A stretch of DNA of 64,000 nucleotides from an uncultured Clostridia bacterium (GCA_947629985.1 CANRFV010000006.1:29119-93118); one strand, 5' to 3'; positions 23,599 to 50,035 are shown, numbered from the stretch's first letter. The notes: a model not told the origin generated them from the letters alone. Numbers and translations are program-made.

Positions 23599-25425
23599 CT
23601 ATTTGTTTTTGTTGTTTTTTGCCCATATGCGCATACGTTCGGCGTGATCCAATACCTGTTTGCGCAATCTGATGGAAGTGGGGGTAACTTCCACAAGTTC
23701 GTCGTCGCCGATAAATTCCAGACACTGTTCCAAACTAAGCACGGTGGGAGTGGTAAGTTTAAGCGCTTCTTCCGAGCCGCTTGCACGGTTGTTGGTAAGG
23801 TGTTTGGTTTTGCACACGTTTACGGTAATGTCGTCCTCGCGGCTGTTTTCGCCGACGATCATTCCCGCGTAGACGGGCAAGCCCACGTCAACAAACAGAC
23901 GGCAGCGTTCCTGCGCGTTGAACAGCCCGTAAGCGGTGGTAACGCCGTCCTCCCAGCACACCAAACTGCCGCGCGTGCGCTCGGTAACTTCGCCTTTGTA
24001 AGGTTCGTAACCGTCAAGCACGCTGCTCATAACGCCGAATCCCTTGGTATCGGTAAGCAGTTCGCTGCGGTAGCCGAACAACGCGCGCGACGGAATACGA
24101 AATTCCAACTTGGTGCCGCCCTGATTGTCGGGCGACATATTTATAAGTTCCGCTTTGCGCGCGCCGAGTTTGTTCATTACGTTGCCTACGTACGCTTCGG
24201 GCACTTCTACTACAAGGTATTCTATCGGTTCGCACTTTACGCCGTTTATTTGCTTAAAAATTACCTTGGGGCGCGATACCTGAAATTCGTACCCTTCGCG
24301 GCGCATATTTTCGATAAGTATGCTAAGGTGCAGTTCGCCCCTGCCGTAAACCTTAAAGCAATCGGGGCTGTCGGTTTCTTCCACGCGCATAGATACGTTG
24401 GTTTCCACTTCGCGGAACAGGCGCGCGCGCAGGTGGCGGCTGGTTACGTACTTGCCTTCCTTGCCTGCAAAGGGACTGTCGTTTACCATAAACAGCATCG
24501 ATACGGTAGGCTCGTCTATATTTACAAACGGCAGCGGTTCTACCTTGTCGATGGAGCAGATAGTCTCGCCTATGTTCATATCGGCAATGCCGTTTACCGC
24601 AACGATGTCGCCCATGCTGCCTTCGGCGCACTCTACGCGTTTAAGCCCTTCAAATTGATACAGCCGCGTAACCTTTGCGGTGTTGAAACTGTTGTTGCGG
24701 TGGCACAAAATTACGGGCTGTCCCACGGTGATTTTGCCGCGGTTTACTTTGCCTATGCCTATGCGCCCCACGTAGTCGTCGTAATCGATGTTGCAAATAA
24801 GCAGTTGCAAACCGTTGTCTGTTTCGCCTTGCGGCGCGGGAATTTCGGTAAGTATTGCGTCCAACAGCGGCGTCATATCCTTACCTACGGTGTTTACCGA
24901 TGTGGAAGCCCAACCCTGTTTTGCCGACGCGAAAATAACTTTGAAGTCGAATTGATCGTCGTTTGCGCCCAATTCCATAAACAGTTCCATTATTTGTTCG
25001 CGCAGGGCATGCTCGTCAAATTCGCCCTTGTCCACTTTGTTTACCACAACAAGCGCTTTTTTGCCCAAACCGAGAGCCTTTTTCAGTACGTAACGCGTTT
25101 GCGGCATACAGCCTTCTATTGCGTCTACAAGCAACAGCACGCCGTCCACCATAGACAGTATGCGTTCCACTTCGCCGCCGAAATCGGCATGCCCCGGGGT
25201 GTCGATTATGTTTATTTTCGTGCCTTTGTAGTGTACTGCGGTGTTTTTGGCAAGAATGGTTATTCCGCGTTCGCGCTCGATGTCGTTGCTGTCCATCACG
25301 CGCTCCACAACCGTCTCGTTGGCGCGGAATATTCCGTTTTGCTTTAACAGTTGGTCAACCAGCGTGGTTTTGCCGTGGTCTACGTGGGCAATTATCGCAA
25401 TGTTTCTTATGTCGTTTCTTTGCAT
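23599..25425 (-). CDS. typA: translational GTPase TypA/BipA
   Basis: [25 protein letters not shown] and NKVD motifs; 608 aa. Start trimmed to ATG 25425 behind GGAGAA. Confidence 0.95.
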
Positions 25426-27659: not shown

Positions 27660-27855
27660 CGCTCGCATACCGCGCCGAAAACGGCTTTGCCGCGCGCACA
27701 TACGTGCGCTTGTTGCATATTGTTTTGCGGCGCGATATGCTCTCTTGGCGGGGGAGATTTGACAAGGAAGGGTAACTTCGTTTGATCTAAGCCGTCGTCA
27801 AATTGTTTACAACATACACGTTACAACAAATTGCGCAAAAACATCGCGCTTTTGT

Positions 27856-27884
27856 TTGACAAAATTCCCGAAATACGTTACTAT
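27856..27884 (+). promoter_or_regulatory. sigma-A-type promoter of an orphan short transcription unit
   Basis: TTGACA, 17-nt spacer, TACTAT. Confidence 0.6.
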
Positions 27885-27890
27885 ATTCGT

Positions 27891-28105
27891 GTAAATGCAG
27901 TGCAACCGCCGCAAAAACAATTTTTGCCGCAAGGCAGACGGAAAAGTAGGGCAAATGTCTAAACAAACTCTTTTAACAACCAACATAAAAATACCCGCTT
28001 TTCGCTATGCCGTACTTGCGTATATTGCAGGTCTGTCGTTTGCGCCGCATATTTTATCGAGTAGTAAAAACAAGCAATGATTATCTTTGCTTGTTTTCTT
28101 TTTTG
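27891..28105 (+). ncRNA. candidate orphan transcript: rod-folded small RNA, or mRNA for a 41-aa (or 61-aa) hydrophobic peptide
   Basis: Bounded by the promoter above and the terminator AAACAAGCAA-TGATTATCT-TTGCTTGTTT-TCTTTTTT (28066-28105). 27895-27951 is imperfectly complementary to 27994-28050. In-frame ATGs at 27895 and 27955, stop at 28080. Confidence 0.35.
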
Positions 28106-28246
28106 TCCGACAAGCGTTTTGCGCGCCTGCGCAAACCTATTGCAAACCTATTGCAGTAGTGCAACAAGCCGCTGTTCCGCCGCAAAAGACGTCCGTTTAG
28201 CGGGCAAAAAAAACGAGTTTTTTGCTATGACGGCAAAATTTGGGTA

Positions 28247-28275
28247 TTGACTTGCGGGTTGCGTAATGATATAAT
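28247..28275 (+). promoter_or_regulatory. sigma-A-type promoter of the 28352-38852 operon
   Basis: TTGACT, 17-nt spacer, TATAAT. Confidence 0.65.
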
Positions 28276-28351
28276 TTTTATACTGAATAGGTACAGGGGT
28301 ACGTATGCCCGTCTGCTTAAATAAACGTAATTTTTGTATTTGGAGGAATTT

Positions 28352-28654
28352 ATGCTCGGTCTATTAGCCAAACTCAATCCGCTTAAAGACATCGACAAAG
28401 TTTTTTTCATAGTCATTGCGGTAATTGTGGCGGTTGCTGTTGCAATTTATTTTTTGATTCCCGTATTTAACAAAAAACAATATCAAGAACGCAGAGACAA
28501 TTTGAGAATGCGCGAAGAAAAACTTAAAGCCAACGCGCCCAATATGTTTGCGGCGTCAAATGCCGCAGTCGAACAAGTCGATTCGGACGGCGTTGTTGCC
28601 CAAGAACAAGCCGAGCAACCCGCAAATTCCCAACAAGACGTCGACAAACTATAA
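28352..28654 (+). CDS. small single-pass membrane protein (100 aa), unknown function
   Basis: ATG 28352 behind GGAGGA. TM helix FFIVIAVIVAVAVAIYFLIPV, then a charged Q/E-rich tail. Its TAA overlaps the next ATG (TAATG). Confidence 0.6.
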   Translation: MLGLLAKLNPLKDIDKVFFIVIAVIVAVAVAIYFLIPVFNKKQYQERRDNLRMREEKLKANAPNMFAASNAAVEQVDSDGVVAQEQAEQPANSQQDVDKL

Positions 28655-30057
28655 TGAAAGGAAGTAAAGTCTTTTCGATAGTAATATATTATTTATTTAC
28701 ATTTACTATCGGAATTTTGCTCGCTTGGGGGCTGCCGAAGTATTACGGCGATTTCCAAGTCAGGGGCGACTATTTGCAACAAACTGTAGCCGAAGGCAAT
28801 TTCGATCTGGCTATGGCGTGTGCAAGTAACATTTACAACAAAAATCGTGTTTTGGACGTGCAATTTCCGCAAGGCGGCGGCTTGGTGCTATATCAATCGA
28901 TATTGCAATACAATGACGTTTCCGGCGCTTCGGACGGCAACTCCGCGGAAGGGCCCGAACTGCTGGACAAGCAACTGTACAAAGCGATAGTAGGGTTTAT
29001 GTACGGTGTGGATGACGGTTATCGCGTATTTTCGGTGCAAAACAATCAAACCAAACTTATCGTAGATACCGATAGCGGCGCCAAACAGATAGAGTTGTTG
29101 GATTACGACACCAACGACGACGGCATTAACGACGGAATATCCACCTACACTCAGCACAAGTTGATAATCGTAGAAATTCCGTTGAACGGCATATCACAAA
29201 TAAACGGTCTGACGTTTACGGATTACCAAGGCGCAACGTTTTACAGCACAGATGCCGCCATTTCCTGTCAAAGCGACTTTTTCGATATATATTCCGATAT
29301 AAACGAGTACAACGATCTTGTGCGCTTGTATGCCGAAACGTCCGACCAGGACGAGCGAAAAGCCGCCAATGACGCATTGGCTGCAATGTTCGGCGAGTAT
29401 CAAAACAAAACTACCGCCAACCCCGATTACGTATTCATCTCCAACGAAAATAAAAACACCGTTCCCGAATACGTCGAAATGAATTCCGCAGTCAACAAGG
29501 CGTCCAACCGCAAGGCTGTTCCGATAATAATAATCTACTTTGTGTGCGTTTACATTATCGGCGACTTTTTGTTGGGTACGCATTATATAATAAAGTTTTT
29601 CCGCTGGTTGTTGTTCGACGTGTTCAAGATCAAGCGCAAAAACAAGCCGCCCAAGGTCAACCGCGACGAAGTATTCGGGCACGATTATTACAGTCAGGTA
29701 ACTCTGTCGTTGGATACAAGCGACGTACCCGAATTTAACGGCAGTGTGGAAATAAAGTACACCAACAGCGATTCGGAAGTAAAATTTACGTTATTAAAGG
29801 CAGAAAATTACACGGCTACGCAGCGCATAAAAGCGGGCGTGTACGTAAATCCGTTTATAGATATCGACCGCAACTATGCGCCTGTCGATTTGCCGGATAA
29901 CTTCCAAGTTGAAGGGTATCGTCTTGACAAAACCGTCAAAATAGTGCGCCGCAATACAGGCAATTCGGCGCAAAACCGCTCCGACAAGCCCGCCGACGTT
30001 ACGTCGGAACAACCCGACAACCCGTCGCAGGTTACCGAACAAACAGAAAATAAATAA
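28654..30057 (+). CDS. two-TM membrane protein (467 aa) with a large extracytoplasmic domain, unknown function
   Basis: TM1 at residues 7-27, an Asp/Asn-rich outside domain of about 270 aa, TM2 (AVPIIIIYFVCVYIIGDFLLG), a cytoplasmic domain of about 140 aa and a polar tail. No family recognised. Confidence 0.6.
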   Translation: MKGSKVFSIVIYYLFTFTIGILLAWGLPKYYGDFQVRGDYLQQTVAEGNFDLAMACASNIYNKNRVLDVQFPQGGGLVLYQSILQYNDVSGASDGNSAEGPELLDKQLYKAIVGFMYGVDDGYRVFSVQNNQTKLIVDTDSGAKQIELLDYDTNDDGINDGISTYTQHKLIIVEIPLNGISQINGLTFTDYQGATFYSTDAAISCQSDFFDIYSDINEYNDLVRLYAETSDQDERKAANDALAAMFGEYQNKTTANPDYVFISNENKNTVPEYVEMNSAVNKASNRKAVPIIIIYFVCVYIIGDFLLGTHYIIKFFRWLLFDVFKIKRKNKPPKVNRDEVFGHDYYSQVTLSLDTSDVPEFNGSVEIKYTNSDSEVKFTLLKAENYTATQRIKAGVYVNPFIDIDRNYAPVDLPDNFQVEGYRLDKTVKIVRRNTGNSAQNRSDKPADVTSEQPDNPSQVTEQTENK

Positions 30058-30077
30058 AGCGAGAGGTATAACCGCTT

Positions 30078-31151
30078 ATGAAAATATCGATTCAACACTT
30101 GACAAAGATTTTCCCCAGCAGAAACAAGGGCGGAAAGGAAGTTCATGCCGTCGAGGATATGAACATCGAAATACCTTCCGGCAAACTTGTCGGCTTGCTC
30201 GGACCTTCCGGCTGCGGAAAATCGACCACGCTCTTTATGCTCAGCGGACTCGAAAGTCCTACGTCGGGCAAAATTTTGTTCGACGATCAGGACGTAACCA
30301 CGCTTGCGGCGGAAAAACGCGGCATTGGTCTGGTATTCCAAAACTACGCGCTGTACCCGCATATGACAGTAGAGCAAAACATACGCTTTCCCTTGGACAA
30401 TATGCGTATCAAAAAGGACGAAGGCAATGCCCGCGCATTGGACGCGGCGCGTCTTGTTCAGATCGAAGATCTTATGGCGCGCAAACCCAGCGAATTGTCC
30501 GGCGGTCAGCAACAGCGTGTTGCAATTGCCCGCGCGCTTGTCAAAATGCCCAACGTTTTGCTGTTGGACGAACCGCTGTCCAACCTGGACGCACGTCTCA
30601 GACTGCAAACGCGTGAAGAAATCAAGCGTATTCAGCGCGAAACGGGCATAACCACGGTATTTGTAACGCACGACCAGGAAGAAGCGATGAGCATTTGCGA
30701 CATAATGGTCGTAATGAAGTTGGGCGTAGTGCAACAAATAGGCGAACCACAATCCATTTACGACGATCCCGCCAACTTGTTTGTTGCCAACTTCCTCGGC
30801 ACGCCGCCCATCAACATCTTCAAGGGCAAAATCGAAGGCGGCAAAGTGTACGTCGGCGACGAAGCGATCTCCGCAACGGAACACGAAGATCAGGAAGTAT
30901 ACGTGGGTATCCGTCCCGAAGGCTTTATTTACGATCCCGACGGCGTATTTACGCTCGATCTGGACCACGTGGAAGTTATGGGGCGCGACAAGTCCGTCGT
31001 GTCCACTCACCAAGCGTCCACCAAGCCCACCGTTCGTTGCATAATCGATTCCGACGTAAAACTGCCCGAAAAGGCGGACAAATTGAAATTCAACATCAAA
31101 CCCAACAAGTTATTCTTGTTTAACGGCGAAACGGAAGAGAGGATACGCTGA
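30078..31151 (+). CDS. sugar-type (MalK/UgpC/MsmX-like) ABC transporter ATP-binding protein
   Basis: GPSGCGKST, LSGGQQQRVAIARAL and LLLDEPLSNLD motifs; C-terminal TOBE-like domain. Confidence 0.9.
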   Translation: MKISIQHLTKIFPSRNKGGKEVHAVEDMNIEIPSGKLVGLLGPSGCGKSTTLFMLSGLESPTSGKILFDDQDVTTLAAEKRGIGLVFQNYALYPHMTVEQNIRFPLDNMRIKKDEGNARALDAARLVQIEDLMARKPSELSGGQQQRVAIARALVKMPNVLLLDEPLSNLDARLRLQTREEIKRIQRETGITTVFVTHDQEEAMSICDIMVVMKLGVVQQIGEPQSIYDDPANLFVANFLGTPPINIFKGKIEGGKVYVGDEAISATEHEDQEVYVGIRPEGFIYDPDGVFTLDLDHVEVMGRDKSVVSTHQASTKPTVRCIIDSDVKLPEKADKLKFNIKPNKLFLFNGETEERIR

Positions 31152-32326
31152 TGGCAGACAAAAATGCGCAAGACGTTTCGGCAGAAGTTGAAACCACCGA
31201 AACGCAACAACCCGCTTCGAAACAAAAGACCAATGCTTTTGTCGCCTTTTGGAAAAATCTCGGCGGCAAGGTAAAGGGTGTGTTCGGCGGCTGGTCAAAC
31301 AAATCGCCGCGGCACGTCGAAGCCGACTTGGTACTCAACCAACAACAGCAGTTGTCCACGGGCGAAAAGGTCAAGCGCGCGTTAAAAGCGCAAAGCGGTT
31401 GGCTGTTTGTTGCGCCTGCGTTGCTGTTGATGCTTTTGTTTACGTTTTACCCAATAGTAAGCGCCTTCATCAACGCTTTCAAGCAGGATCTCGACCTTAC
31501 CGGCAACTATTCCGGCTGGGGGTTCGACAACTTTGTACACGTGTTCAAGGGCGATACGGGCACAGGCGGCGCAACGTTTGTGCAGTGCCTTATCAACACG
31601 CTTGTGTTTACGTTGGTATCCGTGCCGCTTTCCACATTGATTGCGCTGCTCATATCCGTGGCGCTCAACTCCATCAAAGCGGTGCAAAAAGCATATCAAA
31701 CAATACTTTTCCTGCCGTATCTTACCAACTCGTTGGCAATGGGCGCGGTTTTCGCAACCTTCTTTACGTTGGTCAACTCCGGCAGCGGAACAAACGTCGG
31801 TTTAATAAACCAATTTCTCGGTTTGTTCGGCATACCGCCTACAGATTGGATGGGTATCGGCGCTCCCGTATGGGAACTCGGCGACGCAGTCAAAATTTAT
31901 TGGACTAAATACCTTGTGGTAATAATCTACGAAATTTGGTCGGGTCTGCCCTTCAAAATTCTCATTTTGTTCAGCGCGCTGCAAAGCGTCAACAAACAAT
32001 ATTACGACGCCGCCCGCGTAGACGGAGCAAAGCGTAGCACAATTTTGTGGAAGATCACCACTCCGATGATAATGCCGCAAATCAGTTATCTGCTTGTTAC
32101 GGGCATTATGGGCGGTATGAAACAATACACGGCGGTTGTAGGTCTGTTCGGTTCCAAGATGGGCTTGCAATTCGAAGTGGGTACAATGGTTGGTTACGTT
32201 TACCAATACATCGAAGGCGGTTCGCCCAAATACGGCTACGCCTATGCCGCGTCGTTGTTGCTGTTTGCAATAATAATGGTTATTACATTTATCAACAACA
32301 AAATCACGGGCAAACGTTCGCACTAA
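31151..32326 (+). CDS. carbohydrate-type ABC transporter permease (MalF/UgpA-like) with a polar N-terminal extension of about 90 aa
   Basis: TGATG overlap with the ATPase gene. Six predicted TM segments. EAA-like loop (DAARVDGAKRSTILWKITTPM). Confidence 0.85.
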   Translation: MADKNAQDVSAEVETTETQQPASKQKTNAFVAFWKNLGGKVKGVFGGWSNKSPRHVEADLVLNQQQQLSTGEKVKRALKAQSGWLFVAPALLLMLLFTFYPIVSAFINAFKQDLDLTGNYSGWGFDNFVHVFKGDTGTGGATFVQCLINTLVFTLVSVPLSTLIALLISVALNSIKAVQKAYQTILFLPYLTNSLAMGAVFATFFTLVNSGSGTNVGLINQFLGLFGIPPTDWMGIGAPVWELGDAVKIYWTKYLVVIIYEIWSGLPFKILILFSALQSVNKQYYDAARVDGAKRSTILWKITTPMIMPQISYLLVTGIMGGMKQYTAVVGLFGSKMGLQFEVGTMVGYVYQYIEGGSPKYGYAYAASLLLFAIIMVITFINNKITGKRSH

Positions 32327-32340
32327 GGGAGGGTTACGTT

Positions 32341-33390
32341 ATGGCAAACAAACAAATTGACGACAAACAACAAAACGTAACAAATCCTGCGCCCGAACAG
32401 CAACCCGCAAGCGCGGCGGAAACCAATTTTGCGCCCATCGGCGCGGCATTGGAAGAGGCTCCCACGCAGTTCGACGTCGAACGCGCCATCAAGCGGCAAA
32501 AAACGCTGCGCATAGTAAAGGACGTATTTGTGTACATATTCCTTACGATCTGCGCCGTGTTGGCATTTTTGCCCTTCTATTGGATGGTAATCACTTCGCT
32601 CAAAAACGAGTGGGAATACCGTGCGATAACGCCCACGTTTTTCCCGACGCAGGGCGTGGTGTGGAAGAACTACGAAATAGTGCTGTCCAGCACCGACAAT
32701 TCTCAAAACAATTTCGGTCAGATACTTGTAAACACGCTTGTCGTGGGCTTGCTGTCCACGGTAATAGGCGTAATTATCACGGTAATTACGGCGTATGCGT
32801 TTGCTCGAATGAATTTCAAAGGTAAAAACGCGTTGTTTGCGCTTATGCTTGCAACAATGATGATCCCCGGCGAAATGTATACTATCAGCAATTACCAAAT
32901 GACCCGCGGTTGGGAATGGAACAATACCTACATCGTATTGATACTGCCCTTCCTGGTAAGCGTTTACTACACGTATCTGTTGCGCAACAACTTTATGCAA
33001 ATTCCCGATTCGCTGTATCAGGCGGCAAAAGTAGACGGCTTGTCCGACTTCGGCTACCTTGTAAAAGTAATGGTGCCGCTTACCGCTCCCACGTTGGTAA
33101 GCATTACGTTGCTCAAATTCATCGGCACCTGGAACAGTTACATTTGGCCCCGCCTTATCAACAACGACGAAAGTTGGCAAATGATCACCAACTGGGTAAC
33201 GGGCGGCTTTACCGATATGAACGGCGTGCTGTACAACGGCGATGTGTTCCAATGGATATCCAACACCGAGTCGCTTACAACGTTGCGTATGGCAGCGGTT
33301 TGTATGGTATCGTTGCCGCTGTTTGTACTGTTCATCTTCTGCCGCAAGTACATTATGCGCGGCGTATCCAAGAGCGGTACAAAAGGTTGA
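32341..33390 (+). CDS. carbohydrate-type ABC transporter permease (MalG/UgpE-like) with a polar N-terminal extension of about 70 aa
   Basis: ATG 32341 behind GGGAGGG. EAA-like loop (QAAKVDGLSDFGYLVKVMVPL). Confidence 0.85.
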   Translation: MANKQIDDKQQNVTNPAPEQQPASAAETNFAPIGAALEEAPTQFDVERAIKRQKTLRIVKDVFVYIFLTICAVLAFLPFYWMVITSLKNEWEYRAITPTFFPTQGVVWKNYEIVLSSTDNSQNNFGQILVNTLVVGLLSTVIGVIITVITAYAFARMNFKGKNALFALMLATMMIPGEMYTISNYQMTRGWEWNNTYIVLILPFLVSVYYTYLLRNNFMQIPDSLYQAAKVDGLSDFGYLVKVMVPLTAPTLVSITLLKFIGTWNSYIWPRLINNDESWQMITNWVTGGFTDMNGVLYNGDVFQWISNTESLTTLRMAAVCMVSLPLFVLFIFCRKYIMRGVSKSGTKG

Positions 33391-33509
33391 TTACGCATCG
33401 GCACGGCGCTTTTGCCGCCGCAGCCGCACACACGTTACCCGTTTGCGTGTAAATAACAGTGTAATTTACGCACACTAAGTGCGTGGATAATAAAATTAAG
33501 GAGAAAACT

Positions 33510-35054
33510 ATGAAAAAACTAATCGTAAGTATATTGGTTTGCGTGTTTTTGTTTGCGGGCGCATTGACAATAATGACCGCCTGCGACAAAGATCCTACCC
33601 CCACGCCGGATGACGGACCGTTGACGGATTACTCGCATACCATTGTGTTCTATTCCACTATGGGTCAAACCCTTCGCGGAGTTTTGGAGCCCCTTATCGA
33701 AGATTTCGAGGCGGCTCACCCCGGCTGGAAAGTGGAACACAACTATTCGGCAGGCAATTATGACACCCTCAAGAACCTTATTACCAACGATTTGCGTACA
33801 GGTACTCAGCCCGACTTGGCATATTGCTATCCCGACCACGTTGCGTCCTACCTTGCAACGCGCAAAGTTGTAGATCTTTCCAAGTACCTTACCAGTTCCG
33901 AAGAACTGACGTTCAACGGCGTTACGGAACGTATCGGTTACACCGGCGACGAACTTGCGGATTTCTACGACATCTTTATGGAAGAAGGTCGTGCGGAAAA
34001 CTACTTCGAATATGACCGCTACGGTTACAATGAAGAAAGCGTTCTTACAATGCCCTTCATCAAATCCACCGAGTTGCTGTACTACAACCAAGACGCACTG
34101 CTTGCGGCAGCCGATATGTTGCTTGCACAAAACAGAGCCGACGACGCCGCGTTGTTTGCAGAAATAAGCGACGGCAAAGCGGTTACCGCTAAACCCGCAG
34201 ATACCTGGGACATCTTGTGGAAACAAGCCCCCATTCTTAAACAACTGTATCCCAACTGCACTCCGCTTGCTTACGACAGCGAAGACAACTGGTTTATTAC
34301 TATGTGCCAACAAAACAATTGGGGCTACACCAGCATGAACGCGGGACATCACTATCTGTGGACGGAAAATAACGACGGTCTTGTCGCTTGGTTGACAGAT
34401 CTCAAAGATAAAATCGACGCGGGTCTGTTTATGACCAGCACAACCTTGGACGCAACGGGCGAAACTTATACTTCCACCGTATTTACGCAAGGCGTAGGTA
34501 AGTTGGCAGATGGTACCAAAATTGACGGAGGTCAAGGGGGCGGCGCAATTTACTGCATAGGTTCTTCCGGCGGCGCTTCGTACCAATCCACACAAAACTT
34601 TACGGTACGTATCGCTCCCATTCCCGGTTCGGTAGTGGGCGGCAGAACAAATTATTCAGCAATTTCGCAAGGTCCTTCGTTTGTAATGTTCAGCGGCGGC
34701 AACAAGGTTACCAACGTTGAAGAAAAAGAAAAAATGACCTTCTTGTTTATGAAAACGTTGCTTGACGCAACCAGCCAGGTTCAGTTCTCTATGGCAAACG
34801 GTTATTGCCCGTCCAGAGCAAGTTGTTACGAAATCGAAGCGTTTGACGATTATCTCAACAATAACAACACCGTATCGCTTGCAGTTAAGACCGCCGGCGG
34901 TATGACAAGCAGATTCTTTACGTCTCCCGCGTTCGACGGTTCGTCCAACGCACGTGATGCTGTCGGCGCCGCTCTTGTAAGTATTCTCAGCGGAGCAAAC
35001 GTAGAAACCGCACTTCGCAACGCGCTCAACGCTTGCGGCGGCAACAGCAATTAA
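33510..35054 (+). CDS. lipoprotein, family-1 extracellular solute-binding protein (514 aa)
   Basis: ATG behind AAGGAG. Lipobox LTIMTAC. IVFYSTMGQ...DLAYCYPDHV is typical of CUT1 binding proteins. Confidence 0.8.
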   Translation: MKKLIVSILVCVFLFAGALTIMTACDKDPTPTPDDGPLTDYSHTIVFYSTMGQTLRGVLEPLIEDFEAAHPGWKVEHNYSAGNYDTLKNLITNDLRTGTQPDLAYCYPDHVASYLATRKVVDLSKYLTSSEELTFNGVTERIGYTGDELADFYDIFMEEGRAENYFEYDRYGYNEESVLTMPFIKSTELLYYNQDALLAAADMLLAQNRADDAALFAEISDGKAVTAKPADTWDILWKQAPILKQLYPNCTPLAYDSEDNWFITMCQQNNWGYTSMNAGHHYLWTENNDGLVAWLTDLKDKIDAGLFMTSTTLDATGETYTSTVFTQGVGKLADGTKIDGGQGGGAIYCIGSSGGASYQSTQNFTVRIAPIPGSVVGGRTNYSAISQGPSFVMFSGGNKVTNVEEKEKMTFLFMKTLLDATSQVQFSMANGYCPSRASCYEIEAFDDYLNNNNTVSLAVKTAGGMTSRFFTSPAFDGSSNARDAVGAALVSILSGANVETALRNALNACGGNSN

Positions 35055-35080
35055 ACAAGTAAATATTTTACGGTGGCAAA

Positions 35081-36433
35081 ATGAAAAAAACATTCAGCAA
35101 AATTTTAATTACGGTAATGGTGTTGGCGTTATGTTTGTCGCTGATGGTTGCTTGTCAACCCGACGATCCCACGCCTACGCCCAATCCCGTACCCGAAATT
35201 GCGGATAACAGCGAGCATTTCGACGAAATTACCCGCACGCTCAAACTTACCAAAGATTACGAAGGCAAGTCGTTCTTCGATGACGGTATAGGCGTAGCCA
35301 CGCTAAACCGTGCCGTCGACGGCGACACTACCAGCGTAAAGTTGGTCGTCGACAAAAAAACCGTAAGCATTCGTTACGAACAGATCAACACTCCGGAATC
35401 TACCGGCGGTGTGGAAAAGTGGGGCAAAGCGGCTTCGCTGTACAACAAGGAAAAACTCGAAGGGGCGGATCTGATTGTTGTCGAAGCCACGAAAACTCCG
35501 CCCGCGCACGACAGTTACGGCACGCGTTATTTGGGTTATATCTGGTATCGCACCGCAGGCGAAACCGACCTTAAATTACTCAATCTCGAAATGGTCGAAA
35601 ACGGCTTTTCGCCCAATAACGGTCAGGAAACCCCCGAATATCCGTACTATTCGTATTTCAAAAAAGCCAACGACTTTGCGCGCAGTATCAAGTTGCGTCT
35701 GTATTCCGATCTGGACGACCCGCTGTACGATCGTAACCCCAAGGTTACCACAATAAAGCATTTTTGCGAAAACATCGTCAACGGCGACGAAACAAACGAC
35801 GGATTCAATCTGGAATATTACGACGCCGTGTTGGATTCGGGCAAAAAGGTCCAATTCGAAGGCTATCTTGTAAGCCTTAAAATATCCGACTCCGGCACTC
35901 ACACGTTTGTTGCCGCGCAATACGACGAAGAAACGGGCAAAGTGTACTACATCAACATTTACGCCGCGTATTCTTCCAGCGCCGCGTCGCGTATGAACGT
36001 GGGCGACAAGTACAAGATCGTGGGCGTGGTGCAGTATTACTACGGCACTTGGCAAGTTTCGGGTATTATTTACAACGCCATGCGCGACGGGTTGGATATC
36101 ACCTATCTCAATCAATCAAGTTACTACCTTATGTTCAACTCGCAGGAACCCAACAGTTCGTACGACCAGTATGGCAAAAACCTGTACAGCGACGTAACGG
36201 TAACCGAAGTATCGCGTCAAGGCAACGTTCTTACCGTAACGGGTACCGCCAACAAAGTAGACGGCGGCAAGTTCAACGGCGAAGAGGCCGAGTTTACCTT
36301 TACTATCCCCGTAACGGATAGTTACAACGACGCAATCAAGGTAGGCAGCGTAATATCTCTTACCGGTTTGCAACAAGTAAAAAATTCCGGACAAATCACA
36401 GTGTTATCCTATTCTGACATAACCATCAGATAG
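35081..36433 (+). CDS. lipoprotein with N-terminal staphylococcal-nuclease (SNase) domain and C-terminal OB-fold-like domain
   Basis: Lipobox LMVAC. ATLNRAVDGDTTSVKL..IRYEQINTPES..GVEKWGKAAS..DSYGTRYLGYIWY aligns with S. aureus nuclease ATLIKAIDGDTVKL..FRLLLVDTPET..GVEKYGPEAS..DKYGRGLAYIY. The C-terminus has VGDKYKIVGVVQYYYGTWQV. Confidence 0.8.
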   Translation: MKKTFSKILITVMVLALCLSLMVACQPDDPTPTPNPVPEIADNSEHFDEITRTLKLTKDYEGKSFFDDGIGVATLNRAVDGDTTSVKLVVDKKTVSIRYEQINTPESTGGVEKWGKAASLYNKEKLEGADLIVVEATKTPPAHDSYGTRYLGYIWYRTAGETDLKLLNLEMVENGFSPNNGQETPEYPYYSYFKKANDFARSIKLRLYSDLDDPLYDRNPKVTTIKHFCENIVNGDETNDGFNLEYYDAVLDSGKKVQFEGYLVSLKISDSGTHTFVAAQYDEETGKVYYINIYAAYSSSAASRMNVGDKYKIVGVVQYYYGTWQVSGIIYNAMRDGLDITYLNQSSYYLMFNSQEPNSSYDQYGKNLYSDVTVTEVSRQGNVLTVTGTANKVDGGKFNGEEAEFTFTIPVTDSYNDAIKVGSVISLTGLQQVKNSGQITVLSYSDITIR

Positions 36434-36461
36434 TTTACAAAATCTTATAAGGAGAAAAACA

Positions 36462-38852
36462 ATGAAAAAATCTATCAAATTGACGGTAGTTGCAATGCTT
36501 TTGGTAGTTTGCTTTGCCTTTACCTTTGTGTTGGGCGCCTGCGAAAAGGTTTCGCCCGAACTCGAAGAAGCGCTGCAACTGATCATTATTCCGCAATCCA
36601 ACGGCGCACAGAGCAAACCCTTTACTCTGCCCAAGGATGCCGGCAATTACAAGGGACAGGTAACCTGGACGTCGTCCAACACCGACGCTCTTGAACTTAC
36701 CGAGCAGGAAGATTCCTTCCTTGCCACCCCCAAACCCGGCGACCAACCCGTAACCGTAACCGTTACGGCTCATCTCGGCAAGGCTAAGCGCGATTTCGAA
36801 ATAACTGTCAGCGGTGTTGACATTTATTCGTTTATCGATTCGTTCCAGTTTGCTCAATTGCAAAAAATCGTTTCCGACAACTTCGATCTGCCCACTTCGG
36901 TGCAGTACGAAGGCAAAACCGCAACCATTTCCTGGTCGGTAAAGGAAGCGGACAGCGGCAACGGCGTTATCAAAGTTGAAGGTAACAAAGTTATCGTAGA
37001 CCAACTCAAACTTACAAACGAAAGCGTTCGCGTACAACTTACCGCAACGTTTACGTATGGTAGCACTTCCGAATCCGCAACTTACGCGTTTTACGCTCGC
37101 AAGAGTTTGGATTACGCTTACGCAACGTCCAAGTGGTATGCCACAACCGGCGAAAAGATCGACGTCAGCGGTTATCTGTTGGCTTTGGGTCAAATCTATT
37201 ACTACGCCAGCGGCGACTTCGGCAATGTGGCGGTTTACGTAATAGACGAATCGTTTACGTACAGTTACTATTTTTACAAAATCAACTTCAACGAAGAAGA
37301 TCTTGACAAACTTAAACCCGGCGTTCACGTCAAGGTAGAAGCGGCACAACTCGCTCCCTACAACGGACTGCTCGAAGGTAACAACGGTACTCTTACCGTA
37401 GACGACGAAGATCCTATCGATGTAGAAGATTACATCTACACTCAATTCGAAGACGACCTTATCGGTAACGTTCCCGAATTGCCGTATCACACCGGCGGAC
37501 TTGTAAAACTTTCCAATTGGAAGGTAGACAGCGTTTCCGCTAATGTAAGCGGCAAATCCGGCACTATTGCAACTCTCTCCAAGGGTAGTGCAAAAGTTAC
37601 TATCGGATACAACAACGCTATGGAAGGCTCTTACAAGAGTACGGACGCCGAAGGACAGGACGAAGTTGCCACCGCATTGATCAACAAAGTTAAGGGTCTG
37701 CAAGTAGGCAGTTACGTAACCGTTACGGGTATTATGTCCTATTTCAATGGATGGCAGATTTTGCCGCGTAGCGCAGGCGACGTGGTTGAAGGCACCGAAC
37801 AGGCTGCAAGCACCAACGGTACAACAGCCAAGGCGGCGATCGACGACGTAATGCCCAAGATCGAAGCGCTCAACCCCGGCGTATTTGCGGCACCCGCAAC
37901 GCTCGAATTGCCCACAAGCAGCGGCAGCGTAGCGGTATCTTACCGTGTATGCGGCGTGTCCAAATCTGTCGCACTCGACGGTAACAAACTTGTTATCACT
38001 CCCGCCGAAGCGGCAGAAGACACCGGCGTGGAAGTTATCTTTACGGTAGGCACTTACACAACGCACACTTACTTTACGGTTTCCGCGCAAACTCTTGACG
38101 ACGCAGCGATCGTAGCGGAAGTAAAAGCGTCTATCGACAGCGAACTGAAAAAGGACTATACGTCCGCCGCAACTGTAGAATTGCCGGTAGAAACCGCATA
38201 TCCCGGCGTTACGGTAACTTGGGCTATCAAGGATACTTGCGCATGGGCGTCGCTTAGCGGCAGCACGCTTACCCTTACCCAACCCGAAACAGCGGGCACG
38301 GTAACATTGGTTGCTACAATCAAACTCAATTCCGTAACAGACACCAAGGAAGTTGTGTTTAGCATGGCAGCGGCTGTTAAGGGTGTTCTTGCAAGATTCG
38401 ATTTGGGCGAAGACGGCGAAGAAGGCCATTACGACGGATCGGGTGCTCCCGACGGTGAATCGCTCGTGTTCGAAAGCGGCAATTACACTTTGTCTTTTGA
38501 CAAATGTCAAAAAGTTTACAAAGACGCTCGCGACGAAAAAGGTAACGGCGCTCTCAAATTGGGTACAAGTGATAAAGCGGCAAGTTTCTCGATTACTGTC
38601 GGCGACGATGTAAAAGCGGTTAGATTCTATATAGCTAAATACAAGACCTATGATTCGTATATCAAGATCAACGGTACGCAATACGAACTTACCAAGAACT
38701 CCAACGACGGCGAATATGATGTGATCGTTATCGACACTTCGACGAATAAGACCATCACTTTCGAAACATTCGATATAGATCCAACGGCCAAATATCATTC
38801 CGTACGTTGCATGATCAACACGATCGAGTTCCTGTCGGAACTTCCCGCTTAA
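36462..38852 (+). CDS. large surface lipoprotein (796 aa) with four Ig-like repeats and OB-fold-like modules
   Basis: Lipobox VLGAC. Four repeats share the pattern (L)P....(V/I)(S/T)W......(L/I)....G..(L/V)......V.(L/V)(T/V)AT. OB-like segment VGSYVTVTGIMSYFNGWQILP. Confidence 0.7.
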   Translation: MKKSIKLTVVAMLLVVCFAFTFVLGACEKVSPELEEALQLIIIPQSNGAQSKPFTLPKDAGNYKGQVTWTSSNTDALELTEQEDSFLATPKPGDQPVTVTVTAHLGKAKRDFEITVSGVDIYSFIDSFQFAQLQKIVSDNFDLPTSVQYEGKTATISWSVKEADSGNGVIKVEGNKVIVDQLKLTNESVRVQLTATFTYGSTSESATYAFYARKSLDYAYATSKWYATTGEKIDVSGYLLALGQIYYYASGDFGNVAVYVIDESFTYSYYFYKINFNEEDLDKLKPGVHVKVEAAQLAPYNGLLEGNNGTLTVDDEDPIDVEDYIYTQFEDDLIGNVPELPYHTGGLVKLSNWKVDSVSANVSGKSGTIATLSKGSAKVTIGYNNAMEGSYKSTDAEGQDEVATALINKVKGLQVGSYVTVTGIMSYFNGWQILPRSAGDVVEGTEQAASTNGTTAKAAIDDVMPKIEALNPGVFAAPATLELPTSSGSVAVSYRVCGVSKSVALDGNKLVITPAEAAEDTGVEVIFTVGTYTTHTYFTVSAQTLDDAAIVAEVKASIDSELKKDYTSAATVELPVETAYPGVTVTWAIKDTCAWASLSGSTLTLTQPETAGTVTLVATIKLNSVTDTKEVVFSMAAAVKGVLARFDLGEDGEEGHYDGSGAPDGESLVFESGNYTLSFDKCQKVYKDARDEKGNGALKLGTSDKAASFSITVGDDVKAVRFYIAKYKTYDSYIKINGTQYELTKNSNDGEYDVIVIDTSTNKTITFETFDIDPTAKYHSVRCMINTIEFLSELPA

Positions 38853-38930
38853 TTGCAAACGGCGTGCTACAATTGGTTGACGTGATTTAACAGCCGAACT
38901 TGCGGCGACAACGCAATTCAACTTACACTG

Positions 38931-38967
38931 ATAACGGCTTCGGATTTTTCCGAAGCCGTTATTTTGT
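38931..38967 (+). terminator. strong intrinsic terminator ending the operon
   Basis: ATAACGGCTTCGGA-TTTTT-TCCGAAGCCGTTAT followed by TTTG. Confidence 0.85.
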
Positions 38968-38983: not shown

Positions 38984-39033
38984 GTGGTAGGTTTATCTTG
39001 CAATTTACACCGATGTGTGGTATATTTATCTTG
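38984..39033 (+). promoter_or_regulatory. promoter (TTGCAA-17-TATATT, 38998-39026) overlapped by two 17-nt direct repeats
   Basis: GTGGTAGGTTTATCTTG (38984-39000) and GTGGTATATTTATCTTG (39017-39033). 15/17 identical, 33 nt apart, covering the -35 and -10 elements. Confidence 0.55.
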
Positions 39034-40734: not shown

Positions 40735-41099
40735 GTATACGTTGCCTAAGGCACAAATATTTTTATCGTATATGCGCAACTTTCTTAACGTTGTTGCGCG
40801 CCGTGAAATGCGGCAGTACCGTAAATAATGTTTTGTTTGCCTAAGGTAATTTTTTTTGCAAGCCGCTGTCGGCAGCGTTGCGTGTTTGCGGCGCCTTGTG
40901 CGTTTTGCCTTTGGGCAGGGCGCGGGCGTTTGCGCCTACTCGGTTGGCGGCGTAGTGCAAGCGGCGCTGCGTTGTGCAATTACGCAATGTGTGCGCCGTG
41001 CGGTATGGTTTATTGTAAATAACGTTTGCGCGTTGGGCTTATGTTGCCGCAAGTATGCGGTATACGATTGACGGCGCAAGCGGTGGGAGAGTGAGTTTT

Positions 41100-41636
41100 A
41101 TGATAGAGATCGGCAAAAAAATAAAGCAGTACCGATTGCAACTCGATCTTACGCAGGAAGAATTGGCATTGCGCACCGAGTTGACCAAAGGGTACATTTC
41201 GCAATTGGAAAACGACCTGTGTTCGCCGTCGATAGCCACCTTGCAGGACATTCTCAACGTGTTGGGGGTAAGTTTGCAGGATTTCTTTACCGAGCCGCAG
41301 GCAGAGCAGGTGGTGTACACCGCAAGCGACTATTTTGTATCGAAAAACGGCGACGGCAACAACACCTGGCTTATTCCCAATTCGCAGGTAAAGCAAATGG
41401 AACCGATAATTCTCACCTTGCCCAAGGGCGGCAGCAGCGAAGAGCGCTATCCCTTCGAAGGCGAAGAATTCGGCTATGTGTTGCAGGGCGAAGTGGAAAT
41501 TGTAACCTTGCAGGAACGTTACAGGCTAAAACAGGGCGAATCCTTTTCCATCGACGGAAAAAAACAGCACACAATAAAAAATTTACAAAAAGGCGAAAGC
41601 AAAGTTTTGTGGGTAACCACCCCGTCTAACTTTTAG
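41100..41636 (+). CDS. XRE-family transcriptional regulator with C-terminal cupin domain
   Basis: HTH IKQYRLQLDLTQEELALRTELTKGYISQLEN, plus a cupin (GEEFGYVLQGEVEI...). Start trimmed to ATG 41100. Confidence 0.85.
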   Translation: MIEIGKKIKQYRLQLDLTQEELALRTELTKGYISQLENDLCSPSIATLQDILNVLGVSLQDFFTEPQAEQVVYTASDYFVSKNGDGNNTWLIPNSQVKQMEPIILTLPKGGSSEERYPFEGEEFGYVLQGEVEIVTLQERYRLKQGESFSIDGKKQHTIKNLQKGESKVLWVTTPSNF

Positions 41637-41645
41637 GAGGAAACA

Positions 41646-43100
41646 ATGGACGACAAAATCATCGAGATCAAGAACGTAAACAAATCGTACAGCGACAAAC
41701 CCGTGGTAAAAAATTTGTCGCTTACCATCAAGCGCGGCGAGTTTGTAACCTTGCTGGGTCCTTCCGGTTGCGGCAAAACCACAACGTTGCGTATGATTGC
41801 CGGTTTTGAACAGCCCACCGACGGCAAAATTTACTTCAACGGCACGGATATTACTCAATTGCCGCCGCACAAGCGCAATATCAACACGGTTTTTCAGCGC
41901 TATGCCCTGTTTCCTCATCTCAACGTATTCGGCAACATCGCGTTCGGGCTCAAAATGAAGTACGTGCCGGACGGCGAACCGAAAACCGACTCCAAGGGCA
42001 ACCAAGTGCAAAAAATGCGCCGTCTTACCAAGGCGGAAATAACCGAAAAAGTAAACAACGCGCTCAAAATGGTAGATTTGGAAGATTACGGACATCGTTC
42101 GGTCAACTCGCTTAGCGGCGGTCAGCAACAGCGCGTTGCCATTGCCCGCGCATTGGTAAACGAGCCTCAGGTATTGTTGTTGGACGAGCCGTTGGGCGCG
42201 CTGGACCTTAAAATGCGCAAGGATATGCAATTGGAACTGATGGCTATGCACAAGCAATTGGGCATTACTTTTGTGTACGTAACGCACGATCAGGAAGAAG
42301 CGCTTACGATGTCCGACACCATCGTGGTAATGAAGGACGGCGAAATTCAGCAAATAGGCACCCCCAACAAGGTGTACGACGAGCCTGCAAATGCGTTTGT
42401 AGCCGACTTTATTGGCGAATCGAACATTCTGTCGGGCACTATGGTAAAGGATTGCTGCGTCGAAATAGACGGGCACCGCTTTGAGTGCGTTGACAAGGGC
42501 TTCAAGTTTAACGAGCCTATCGACGTAATTATTCGTCCCGAGGACATCAAGATTGTACCCGCGGACGGCGCCGATTGCCTTATTACCGCCAAGGTGCTTT
42601 CCTGCGTGTTTAAGGGCGACCACTATCAGGTAACCGCCCTTACCGACGGCGAAGAACACAACGAAATTATCATTCACGACAACGTAGAAGTGCAAACGGG
42701 CGACGCGATCGGGCTGTACATCAAGCCTTTCGACTTCCACATTATGCACAAGTCGCGCCTTATCAACACAATTGAGGGCGAAATGTACGCGCCGCACACG
42801 GTGGAATTTTGCGAAGGTCGTTTTGAATGTACAAGCGACCTGCCCGAAGGCACCAAGGTAAGCGTAAAGGTGGATTTCGACGACGTGGAACTTACCGACG
42901 ACGAAGAAGACGGCACAATCGGCGCCACGGTAATTTCGGCAATATACAAGGGCAGTTATTGGCAATATATAGTGCGTTCGGACGACTATTACGACTTTTT
43001 TGTGGACAACGACTACGAGTGGAGCATAGGCGACCGCGTAGGCATACGTATTGCCCCCGACAAAATTATTGTCGAGGAGGTGCCCGATGAACAAGAGTAA
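41646..43100 (+). CDS. potA: spermidine/putrescine ABC transporter ATP-binding protein with an internal insertion and a duplicated C-terminal domain
   Basis: GPSGCGKTT, LSGGQQQRVAIARAL and LLLDEPLGALD motifs. 484 aa. Two similar C-terminal modules (FKGDHYQVTAL...GDAIGLYIKP and YKGSYWQYIVR...GDRVGIRIAP). Confidence 0.85.
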   Translation: MDDKIIEIKNVNKSYSDKPVVKNLSLTIKRGEFVTLLGPSGCGKTTTLRMIAGFEQPTDGKIYFNGTDITQLPPHKRNINTVFQRYALFPHLNVFGNIAFGLKMKYVPDGEPKTDSKGNQVQKMRRLTKAEITEKVNNALKMVDLEDYGHRSVNSLSGGQQQRVAIARALVNEPQVLLLDEPLGALDLKMRKDMQLELMAMHKQLGITFVYVTHDQEEALTMSDTIVVMKDGEIQQIGTPNKVYDEPANAFVADFIGESNILSGTMVKDCCVEIDGHRFECVDKGFKFNEPIDVIIRPEDIKIVPADGADCLITAKVLSCVFKGDHYQVTALTDGEEHNEIIIHDNVEVQTGDAIGLYIKPFDFHIMHKSRLINTIEGEMYAPHTVEFCEGRFECTSDLPEGTKVSVKVDFDDVELTDDEEDGTIGATVISAIYKGSYWQYIVRSDDYYDFFVDNDYEWSIGDRVGIRIAPDKIIVEEVPDEQE

Positions 43101-49786: not shown

Positions 49787-49815
49787 AATACCGTCGAAAG
49801 ACAAATAACAATATT

Positions 49816-49933
49816 ATTCTTTGGGGCGTGGTGCAATTCCACACCGATAGTACAGCCTATGAACGCAACTTAACGGTTGCGCCGATCGGGTGAAACTCCC
49901 GAGCCGACGGTATAGTCCGGATGAGAAAAGAAT
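49816..49933 (+). promoter_or_regulatory. FMN riboswitch (RFN element) aptamer
   Basis: CTTTGGGGCGTGGTGCAATTCCACACCGATAGT ... GGTGAAACTCCCGAGCCGACGGTATAGTCCGGATGAGAAAAGAAT matches the RFN consensus (GGGGCAGGGTGAAATTCCC.ACCGGCGGT ... GCCGACAGTATAGTCTGGATG.GAGAAGA). P1 pairs ATTCTTT with AAAGAAT. Confidence 0.92.
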
Positions 49934-49964
49934 CAGCAATATTTTCAATAATGGAAATTGGTCA

Positions 49965-49996
49965 GCCCCCGAAGCGTTACGTCGGGGGTTTTCTTT
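49965..49996 (+). terminator. riboswitch expression-platform terminator
   Basis: CCCCCGA-AGCGTTACG-TCGGGGG followed by TTTTCTTTG, 40 nt before the ribU start. Confidence 0.8.
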
Positions 49997-50035
49997 GTTC
50001 AAAGCGCGTTTCAAAGGCAATTCGGAGGTATTTTT

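Follow-up and report, generated by a model that had tools for sequence, protein, structure and literature searches.

A conserved operon of uncultured gut Clostridia joins a CUT1-type ABC importer to a nuclease-family lipoprotein and an OB-fold lipoprotein and probably serves the scavenging of extracellular nucleic acid

What would a transporter of the sugar-importing kind be doing in one operon with a nuclease? The question is raised by eight same-strand genes, here called g1 to g8, that occupy positions 28352-38852 (+ strand) of a 64,000-nucleotide stretch of DNA from an uncultured Clostridia bacterium (GCA_947629985.1 CANRFV010000006.1:29119-93118); this whole stretch is referred to below as the window. 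The genes encode two orphan membrane proteins (g1 and g2), the ATPase and the two permeases of an ATP-binding cassette (ABC) importer (g3, g4 and g5), its substrate-binding protein (SBP; g6), a lipoprotein with a staphylococcal nuclease (SNase) domain (g7) and a large lipoprotein with immunoglobulin (Ig)-like repeats and OB modules (g8). A reading made from the sequence alone, referred to here as the sequence-only reading, had taken the unit for a machine that captures extracellular nucleic acid or another phosphodiester-linked polymer, degrades it and imports the products. We consider it probable that the operon serves the capture, degradation and import of extracellular nucleic acid with a cargo that is still phosphorylated, and we rate nucleic acid scavenging in general more highly than that. 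The proposal gains from the conservation of the gene order, the catalytic residues of the nuclease, the OB modules of g8, the grouping of the binding protein and the salvage genes found upstream in related loci, all of which are computational lines of support.

That the eight genes belong together is seen from their distribution. A search with g7 led to five loci, in each of which tblastn placed all eight genes in colinear order, and two SBP homologues chosen because they lie on long contigs showed the same arrangement next to other flanking genes. An alignment of g2, the most specific marker of the unit, retrieved 70 species-level genomes out of 185,579, and conservation was judged on about 78 loci from 70 species-level gut metagenome-assembled genomes (MAGs), all of them uncultured, with rabbit, human, mouse, chicken and rumen as sources. 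These MAGs are labelled Clostridia, Christensenellaceae, Oscillospiraceae, CAG:238, CAG:475, Candidatus Fimimonas, Anaeroplasma and Bacilli, and the nearest relative of the window's own GlmS, 59% identical, comes from an uncultured MAG of the Christensenellaceae. No exception to the order g1-g8 was seen in any locus as far as the contig extends, across loci with GC contents of 32-59%, so that the possibility, allowed for in the sequence-only reading, of an order confined to this one genome can be set aside. Identity to the window proteins is 79-97% for the ATPase (the highest of these values come from alignments that end at contig ends), 54-76% for the permeases, 35-48% for the SBP, 35-58% for the SNase protein, 27-38% for g8 and 28-48% for g2. 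Since the flanks vary between loci, it is the eight genes that make up the unit, and the comparison of these sequences indicates that g1-g8 are an old, self-contained module rather than a chance juxtaposition. Five loci (L048, L062, L051, L074 and L078) were noted for their labels, and some module-bearing contigs carry the names Phascolarctobacterium succinatutens or Parasutterella excrementihominis; the contigs with these two names are probably mis-binned. The lowest GC content (32%) and the most divergent copies are those of L074 ("Anaeroplasma sp.") and L078 ("Bacilli bacterium"), and the module may therefore extend to Mollicutes-related lineages.

Within the window, all eight open reading frames (ORFs) lie where the sequence-only reading had placed them, and their coordinates bear out the gaps and overlaps that it described. 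From g1 to g8 the intergenic distances are -1, 20, -1, 11, 119, 26 and 28 nt; the sequence TAATG at 28654 is a stop-start overlap of g1 and g2, and g3 and g4 have one base in common at 31151. In a relative that is 97% identical and has the same flanks, a second gene caller gave proteins of 100, 467, 357, 391, 349, 514, 448 and 796 aa, of which only g5 and g7 differ from the window proteins, by 1-2 residues. A promoter-like site is predicted at 28247..28275 (+), 77 nt 5' of the g1 start codon; it reads TTGACT-17-TATAAT with an extended -10 TG, matches at 11 of 12 positions, ranks first among the 20 promoter-like sites in the 13 kb between 27000 and 40000, and is unchanged in the 97%-identical relative. 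A ribosome-binding site, GGAGGAA at 28343..28349 (+), was read from the sequence before the g1 ATG. At the other end, a terminator-like hairpin of 15 pairs, 7 of them G-C, followed by TTTTGTCTCTCT, lies at 38930..38963 (+), 78 nt past the g8 stop, and is the top-scoring site of its class in the region. The earlier description of a promoter and a strong terminator that bracket the genes thus stands in that these are the best-scoring sites of the region, but neither class is commoner there than in shuffled sequence (20 promoter-like sites vs 14.5 +/- 4.6; 16 terminator-like sites vs 22.2 +/- 4.6). What supports the operon boundaries is therefore the quality and position of the two sites, together with the tight spacing of the genes. 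In the window the operon is flanked by glmS on its 5' side and on its 3' side by a galactokinase gene, which has its own promoter-like site at 38998-39026.

The product of g7 (35081..36433, +) is a 450-aa lipoprotein, the N-terminal half of which had been described as matching S. aureus thermonuclease motif by motif, and both the domain search and the catalytic residues agree with that description. Its residues ~73-210 align to S. aureus nuclease and match the SNase family PF00565 with 42.7 bits against a cut-off of 21, and the same family is matched by all nine aligned members, the S. aureus reference sequence included. The equivalents of D19, D21, R35, T41, E43 and R87 are invariant in 61 distinct g7 orthologues, while the D40 equivalent is Asp in 54 of these and Asn in 7, with the window copy among the latter; Y113 and Y115 of S. 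aureus are not retained. By these sequence comparisons g7 is a true SNase homologue, and its pattern of residues is that of an active enzyme under selection, with nuclease activity as the prediction. The C-terminal half of the protein (residues ~215-450, about 240 aa) is conserved and contains two beta-rich regions. Sub-threshold OB matches were obtained there for PF01336 in 6 of 41 orthologues (0.0069-0.05) and for CDC13_N in 5 of 41, and a profile of this half found no match among the sequences of the Protein Data Bank (PDB); on sequence grounds this half is possibly OB-like.

The largest protein of the operon, the 796-aa lipoprotein g8 (36462..38852, +), begins like g7 with a signal peptide and a lipobox cysteine, in this case Cys27, the predicted site of the lipid anchor. 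The Pfam scan returned three aBig_2 stretches (best 1.2e-11), and the domain order was taken from an AlphaFold2 model based on 34 homologues, with a predicted local distance difference test (pLDDT) score of 87. In the model, two Ig-like domains formed by aBig_2 repeats 1-2 (residues 32-212) are followed by a five-stranded OB barrel with a helix between strands 3 and 4 (residues 218-315), a second OB barrel of the same topology (residues 321-443), two helix-plus-Ig units that correspond to aBig_2 repeats 3-4 (residues 452-635) and a C-terminal beta-sandwich (residues 642-791). Compared with one another by hhalign, the four Ig repeats prove homologous (probabilities of 70-98%). Over the OB region, PF01336, an OB family that binds nucleic acid, is found in 5 of 7 homologues, with a best value of 1.5e-4 that does not reach the Pfam single-sequence cut-off, DUF5689 matches once (3e-5), and precomputed annotation places PF01336 in most full-length g8 homologues. 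In a whole-chain Foldseek search of the PDB all matches were multi-Ig chains, S-layer proteins, protocadherins and titin among them, and the OB modules were not picked out; an OB-region profile had no match among PDB sequences. The earlier account of g8 as a lipoprotein with Ig-like repeats and OB-like modules is nevertheless upheld by the model topology and by PF01336 in the homologues, and we infer from the model that g8 would be a stalked OB-fold protein that binds nucleic acid. Local hhalign comparison of the OB-like regions of g7 and g8 gave probabilities of 16-34%, which does not establish common descent. Homologues of g8 range from 775 to 2035 aa, and the long forms (for example at L006 12870-17900 and L008 12710-18817, and among the proteins P0242-P0318) gain OB (PF01336) and Ig modules that are placed after a common N-terminal region of ~640 aa; the C-terminal sandwich is variable.

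The evidence on what is transported comes from the binding protein. g6 (33510..35054, +) is a 514-aa lipoprotein that matches the Pfam families SBP_bac_8 (2.4e-20, 73.9 bits) and SBP_bac_1 (28.7 bits), and its lipobox cysteine is invariant among the orthologues. Its family counts more than 4,000 matches, none of them informatively named. A profile of 27 family sequences was compared with PDB sequences, and the matches were ranked by profile score. The top match was the 7C0V/7C0F series, a U3G dinucleotide binder (1.4e-19, 73 bits), followed by E. coli UgpB, a glycerol 3-phosphate (G3P) binder (4AQ4 and 6X84; 7e-19, 71 bits), another G3P binder (9LFF; 1e-15, 60 bits) and M. tuberculosis UgpB and UspB (6R1B and 4MFI; ~1e-9 to 1e-10, 40-43 bits), of which UgpB binds glycerophosphocholine (GPC). 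The best sugar binder, the trehalose/maltose-binding protein 1EU8, came after these (9e-9, 38 bits). The protein in 7C0F is a Thermus thermophilus binding protein for uridylyl-3'-5'-phosphoguanosine, a dinucleotide (SI Table S5, PMC12718374), which also corrects the statement in the sequence-only reading that CUT1 importers are not known for products of nucleic acid breakdown. The UgpB, GPC and U3G binders make up a separate branch of CUT1, in which the phosphate is held by two Tyr and two Ser residues that do not play this part in the glucose binders (PMC12718374). When g6 was aligned with E. coli UgpB and segments of 7C0V, residues Y42, S121, S248, Y323 and R374 of UgpB were found to correspond to Y84, S186, S353, Y432 and R482 of g6, and among the orthologues these are retained as Y84 in 62 of 63, S186 in 63 of 63, S353 in all 63 as Ser (58) or Thr (5), Y432 in 62 of 63 and R482 in 62 of 62. 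The glycerol-contacting residues E66 and W169 of UgpB are replaced in all g6 orthologues, the former by P or A and the latter by A or D. The UgpB residue numbers are presumably those of the 4AQ4 paper, and they are consistent with the alignment.

Searches with NCBIfam models gave a related picture, in that both the UgpB model (best 1e-14) and lipo_P68, the model of a mycoplasma P68 surface lipoprotein (best 6.4e-9), are matched by 26 of the 27 g6 homologues, and TIGR03850, a carbohydrate SBP model, by 17 of the 27; the window g6 itself scores 29.5 bits with the UgpB model, for which the equivalog cut-off is 411. By these profile comparisons the closest characterised relatives of g6 are phosphate-ester and dinucleotide binders, not sugar binders, contrary to the clustering with oligosaccharide importers that would have told against the sequence-only reading, and g6 is placed in the UgpB/U3GBP phosphate-ester branch of CUT1. 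Because the phosphate-coordinating set is kept and E66 and W169 are replaced, the predicted ligand is most likely a phosphate ester other than glycerol phosphate.

The remaining transporter genes encode an importer core of the CUT1 type. g3 (30078..31151, +) is a MalK/UgpC-type ABC ATPase of 357 aa with a C-terminal regulatory domain, as seen from matches to ABC_tran (3.7e-38), OB_MalK (27.0 bits at a cut-off of 27) and CysA_C (28.2 bits); its top NCBIfam match is UgpC (2.3e-106), and the 355.8 bits obtained lie under the equivalog cut-off of 432. The two permeases match BPD_transp_1 and are of the MalF/UgpA type in the case of g4 (31151..32326, +; 391 aa; 1.5e-13) and of the MalG/UgpE type in the case of g5 (32338..33390, +; 350 aa; 1.7e-12), with NCBIfam matches to UgpA (7e-14) and MalF (1.6e-13) for g4 and to UgpE (1.1e-29), GlcU (2.9e-28) and MalG (5.9e-17) for g5. 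Both have polar N-terminal tails, which the sequence-only reading had put at 70-90 aa; the tails are there, but compared with E. coli UgpA and UgpE they add only ~69 aa in g4 and ~53 aa in g5. With a MalK-type ATPase, two separate BPD_transp_1 permeases above cut-off and a cluster-D SBP, the set has the features of a CUT1-type importer (TC 3.A.1.1). The domain calls made earlier for the ATPase, the two permeases, the SBP, the SNase domain and the Ig-like repeats, together with the absence of a family for g1 and g2, all agree with Pfam and NCBIfam.

The proteins encoded by g1 and g2 belong to orphan families, and no match that reaches the cut-off was found for either in Pfam or NCBIfam. g1 (28352..28654, +), coupled to g2 through the TAATG overlap, encodes 100 aa with one transmembrane (TM) helix and a charged tail, and a homologue of it lies directly 5' of g2 in nearly all loci. 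The 467-aa product of g2 (28654..30057, +) was modelled with AlphaFold2 (pLDDT 88) as a long N-terminal TM helix, a beta/alpha ectodomain (~60-260), a second TM helix (271-307), an amphipathic helix and a beta-sandwich (346-432) for which the positive-inside rule suggests a cytoplasmic location. The g2 sequence has no match among PDB sequences, and Foldseek found no whole-fold relative in the PDB, the best matches being to ~90-130 residues of Ig/Cna-B-like sandwich proteins (E ~1e-3). Only 148 relatives were retrieved by the g2 profile among 1.84 billion representatives, and g2 adjoins the ABC genes in all loci. As both are strictly linked to the ATPase gene, g1 and g2 may be accessory subunits of the transporter, and we know of no described parallel for orphan families tied in this way to an ABC importer. 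Distant g2 relatives (P0392-P0452, ~280-440 aa) consist of the N-terminal TM helix, the ectodomain and the second TM helix and do not have the cytoplasmic sandwich; a Pfam scan of ten of them gave nothing usable, and none carries a Pfam domain. The g2 ectodomain also contains an acidic loop that is conserved in the consensus, LLDYDxDGDGxxDG (residues ~148-165, window 29095-29150), which resembles a DxDxDG calcium-binding loop. Such a putative calcium loop is of note given the metal dependence of SNase-type nucleases.

The genes found upstream of the module in related loci point in the same direction as its nuclease. When ORFs that flank the module were clustered across all loci and their identities confirmed by Pfam, the recurrent upstream neighbours on the same strand were an endonuclease I of ~820 aa (27 loci), a thymidine kinase (22 loci), a Metallophos/5'-nucleotidase lipoprotein (21 loci), a pyrimidine-nucleoside phosphorylase (20 loci) and a phosphopentomutase (12 loci). 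In about 25 loci the module forms the distal part of a longer same-strand array of such nucleic acid and nucleoside genes, which lie 1-9 kb 5' of it; in loci such as L011, L015, L019, L023 and L059 the upstream genes form one array that ends directly at g1, and array loci also include L026, L031 and L035. These arrays are strong evidence, of the guilt-by-association kind, for a role in nucleic acid and nucleoside metabolism, and they would fit a cargo with or without phosphate. A 222-aa lipoprotein that has no Pfam match is encoded just 5' of g1 in 12 loci.

If these parts work together, the three lipoproteins g6, g7 and g8 would act at the outer face of the membrane. There the two OB barrels of g8, held out on Ig-like spacers, would hold DNA or RNA, and g7, which belongs to an established family of nucleases, would cut it; by analogy with S. 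aureus nuclease, this may give mononucleotides, dinucleotides and short oligonucleotides that are 3'-phosphorylated. As its family placement suggests, g6 would bind a product that carries a phosphate, most probably a mono- or dinucleotide, and pass it to the g4/g5 permease, with the g3 ATPase as the source of power. g1 and g2 might serve as accessory subunits, and one may speculate that the g2 ectodomain docks the lipoproteins and that its conserved cytoplasmic sandwich touches the ATPase. The likely gain for gut Clostridia with small genomes would be nucleotides, phosphate and pentose.

Several points weigh against this proposal. The PDB matches of g6 are distant (~22% identity) and thus do not define its pocket, in which the glycerol contacts of UgpB are not kept. 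The Asn at the D40 position of g7 could lower its activity or shift its metal preference, the OB fold of g7 is sub-threshold, and OB barrels can bind sugars too. The role assigned to g1 and g2, which rests on linkage, is the weakest step of the analysis. None of the upstream salvage and nuclease neighbours lies within this 64-kb window, and the salvage enzymes seen in other loci use or make nucleosides, which fits the uptake of nucleosides at least as well as that of nucleotides. The whole case, moreover, is built from sequence, predicted structure, conservation and context.

The last but one of these points leads to the explanation that deserves most weight among the alternatives, which is that surface nucleases and a nucleotidase reduce nucleic acid to nucleosides or (deoxy)ribose and that the ABC system imports these unphosphorylated products. 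Textbook accounts of nucleic acid scavenging by bacteria end in dephosphorylation and nucleoside uptake, and most bacteria are thought to dephosphorylate nucleotides before taking them up. It is also in the spirit of this explanation that the 5'-nucleotidase lipoprotein, pyrimidine-nucleoside phosphorylase, thymidine kinase and phosphopentomutase encoded upstream in about 25 loci all make or use nucleosides or pentose phosphates. However, the known nucleoside ABC importers combine binding proteins of the BMP/PnrA type with permeases of the CUT2 type, not CUT1, there is no phosphatase in the eight-gene core nor within the 64-kb window, and the retention in g6 of all five phosphate-coordinating positions of UgpB, together with its grouping with phosphate-ester binders, tells against a cargo that bears no phosphate. 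We regard an unphosphorylated cargo as unlikely.

Less likely than this, in our judgement, is a phosphorylated cargo that does not come from nucleic acid, such as glycerophosphodiesters, glycerol phosphate or fragments of teichoic acid, with the nuclease and the OB lipoprotein as co-regulated partners in a general scavenging of phosphate. That g6, g3, g4 and g5 have UgpB and UgpC/A/E at or near the top of their NCBIfam matches, and that E. coli UgpB scores nearly as high with the g6 profile as the dinucleotide binder does, are what such a transporter would lead one to expect. The scores nevertheless remain far under the Ugp equivalog cut-offs, E66 and W169 of UgpB have been replaced in all orthologues, no enzyme of the GlpQ/UgpQ type turned up either in the operon or among the neighbours that recur upstream of it, and those neighbours are enzymes of nucleic acids and nucleosides. 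The smallest probability goes to an ordinary oligosaccharide importer linked by chance to surface proteins with a separate role, for example the remodelling of an extracellular DNA matrix, adhesion or defence against host DNA traps. Its Pfam families are indeed of a generic sugar type, TIGR03850 is matched by part of the SBP homologues, a galactokinase gene lies 3' of the operon in the window, and aBig_2 repeats are common in adhesins. But a chance linkage does not sit well with a full gene order found in 70 species, the sugar SBPs are much weaker profile matches than the phosphate-ester binders, and the Pfam scan found no glycoside hydrolase in the unit. As for the galactokinase, it was considered as a pointer to a sugar cargo and rejected, as this neighbour is not kept in other loci.

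With the import of phosphorylated nucleic acid fragments as the preferred explanation, a more far-reaching form of it can be put forward tentatively, as a hypothesis that we consider less likely than not: that the operon encodes a dedicated ABC importer for intact phosphorylated fragments (3'-nucleotides, dinucleotides or short oligonucleotides) in walled gut bacteria, and that g1 and g2 are a new class of accessory subunit that couples surface lipoproteins to a MalK-type ATPase. The idea that mycoplasmas import phosphorylated nucleotides or oligonucleotides is, to our knowledge, nearly 20 years old and has yet to be given a defined cargo, and the only ABC binding protein seen with a dinucleotide is Thermus U3GBP. 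If true, the unit would be the first tractable system beyond the mycoplasmas and one Thermus binding protein for nucleotide import without prior dephosphorylation in free-living bacteria, and since the operon is compact and strongly conserved, and its soluble binding protein, its nuclease and its OB protein lend themselves to expression and direct assay, the question of the cargo is testable. The operon also brings to light two orphan families of membrane proteins that go with an ABC importer, and it points to a nutritional dependency that a wide range of uncultured gut Clostridia probably share. Reduced genomes that lack nucleotide synthesis occur in related families of the Christensenellales (PMC12306168), and nucleic acid or nucleotide supplements might therefore aid their culturing.

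Other features of the window were noted in passing. The gap of ~690 nt between glmS and g1 (27660-28246, +) contains a second promoter-like sequence, TTGACA-17-TACTAT at 27856-27884, and, at ~28066-28105, a hairpin that is AT-rich and has a T-run, and may give rise to a small transcript; at 99% identity over the gap, the close relative is too similar for the comparison to be informative. An Rfam scan 5' of the operon found no riboswitch or leader, with only a sub-threshold match to nqrA-II (34.8 bits vs 55). Further upstream, 5' of glmS, a 567-aa ORF at 23644-25347 (+) that has no Pfam match at 1e-5 is overlapped by a 621-aa ORF on the opposite strand, and either strand could be coding. Downstream of the operon lies a second ABC importer (41055-46309, +, reaching ~49332) with an HTH_3+Cupin_2 regulator, a TOBE_2 ATPase, two permeases and a 534-aa SBP_bac_8 protein; after this importer the 97%-identical relative has genes for a GH20 hexosaminidase and a phosphofructokinase, and from its gene content it looks like an amino-sugar or glycan unit that is unrelated to g1-g8. 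An FMN riboswitch (RF00050) at 49813-49936 (+), with 106.8 bits against a gathering score of 66.2, stands directly 5' of an ORF at 49958-50971.

How the operon compares with known systems depends on which of its parts is considered. The transporter genes recall the E. coli Ugp system, as UgpC and UgpE are the top NCBIfam matches for g3 and g5, UgpB for g6, and UgpA ties with MalF for g4. Unlike the Ugp permeases, however, g4 and g5 have long polar N-terminal tails, the gene order differs from ugpBAECQ, and no glycerophosphodiesterase of the UgpQ/GlpQ type accompanies the genes; since both the equivalog scores and the glycerol-contacting residues fail, the unit is, as judged from its sequences, not a true Ugp orthologue. 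The sequence-only reading had drawn a comparison with the extracellular nuclease YhcR of B. subtilis, which is wall-anchored. The likeness holds in so far as both have an SNase domain and OB-type modules at the cell surface, but YhcR has a 5'-nucleotidase domain and an LPXTG anchor, whereas g7 and g8 have no Metallophos or 5_nucleotid_C domain by Pfam and are anchored through a lipobox and not by sortase. The supported OB modules, moreover, are on a separate protein, g8, those of g7 being sub-threshold, and YhcR is not known to be encoded with an ABC importer. S. aureus Nuc is of the same fold family as g7, with D21, R35, T41, E43 and R87 present in both, and g7 differs from it by Asn in place of D40, the loss of Y113 and Y115, the lipid anchor and the C-terminal extension of ~240 aa.

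Closest to g6 among solved structures is the Thermus U3GBP of the 7C0F series (Chandravanshi et al. 2021, as cited in PMC12718374), likewise a cluster-D SBP of CUT1, with which g6 has the aligned phosphate-coordinating positions in common; at ~22% identity, g6 differs in being a lipoprotein and in being ~100 residues longer, with insertions. Closest to the operon as a whole, which may be regarded as their counterpart in walled bacteria, are the nuclease-transporter operons of mycoplasmas. In M. agalactiae, an SBP-like lipoprotein (P80), the SNase lipoprotein MAG_5040 and a sugar-type ABC transporter are co-transcribed, in the layout MAG_5030 (P80)-MAG_5040 (SNase)-MAG_5050/5060/5070, and its authors have proposed that the nuclease provides nucleotide precursors to the transporter (PMC3585158). 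P80 has been modelled on cluster-D SBPs with UgpB among the templates (Phyre output, PMC3585158 supplement), the corresponding genes of M. bovis, MBOVPG45_0307-0311 (P81), are named a putative nucleotide transporter operon (PMC4045577), and M. gallisepticum MslA, a homologue of the M. bovis SBP-like lipoprotein, is reported, in work cited there, to bind DNA or polynucleotides. The model has been restated in a 2025 review (PMC12115388), and the M. hyopneumoniae mhp379 and M. gallisepticum MslA loci are further nuclease-ABC loci of the same kind. The claim of the sequence-only reading that such a unit is undescribed therefore does not hold as regards its kind (PMC3585158, PMC4045577, PMC12115388). 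This likeness is drawn from the layouts described in those papers, the sole lead from sequence being the lipo_P68 match of g6; that match cannot straightforwardly be equated with P80 or MslA, as P68 of M. bovis is a BMP-family protein and P68 of M. hyopneumoniae is mhp390.

In both settings, the SNase lipoprotein comes right after the SBP lipoprotein and is co-oriented with a CUT1-like ATPase and two permeases, and the same role has been proposed, namely the binding and digestion of polynucleotide and the uptake of nucleotide precursors. The genes come in a permuted order, those of the ABC transporter standing first in the unit described here and at the end in mycoplasmas, its hosts are Clostridia/Christensenellaceae-like MAGs (32-59% GC) and not Mollicutes, and g1, g2 and g8, which are conserved in the unit described here, have not been reported for the mycoplasma operon. 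A further difference is that in mycoplasmas it is the SBP-like lipoprotein itself, MslA, for which polynucleotide binding is reported. A literature search for the g1-g8 unit in Clostridia found no description of it. The kind of operon is thus already known, and what is new is its host range outside the mycoplasmas, the OB/Ig lipoprotein g8 and the orphan membrane proteins g1 and g2.

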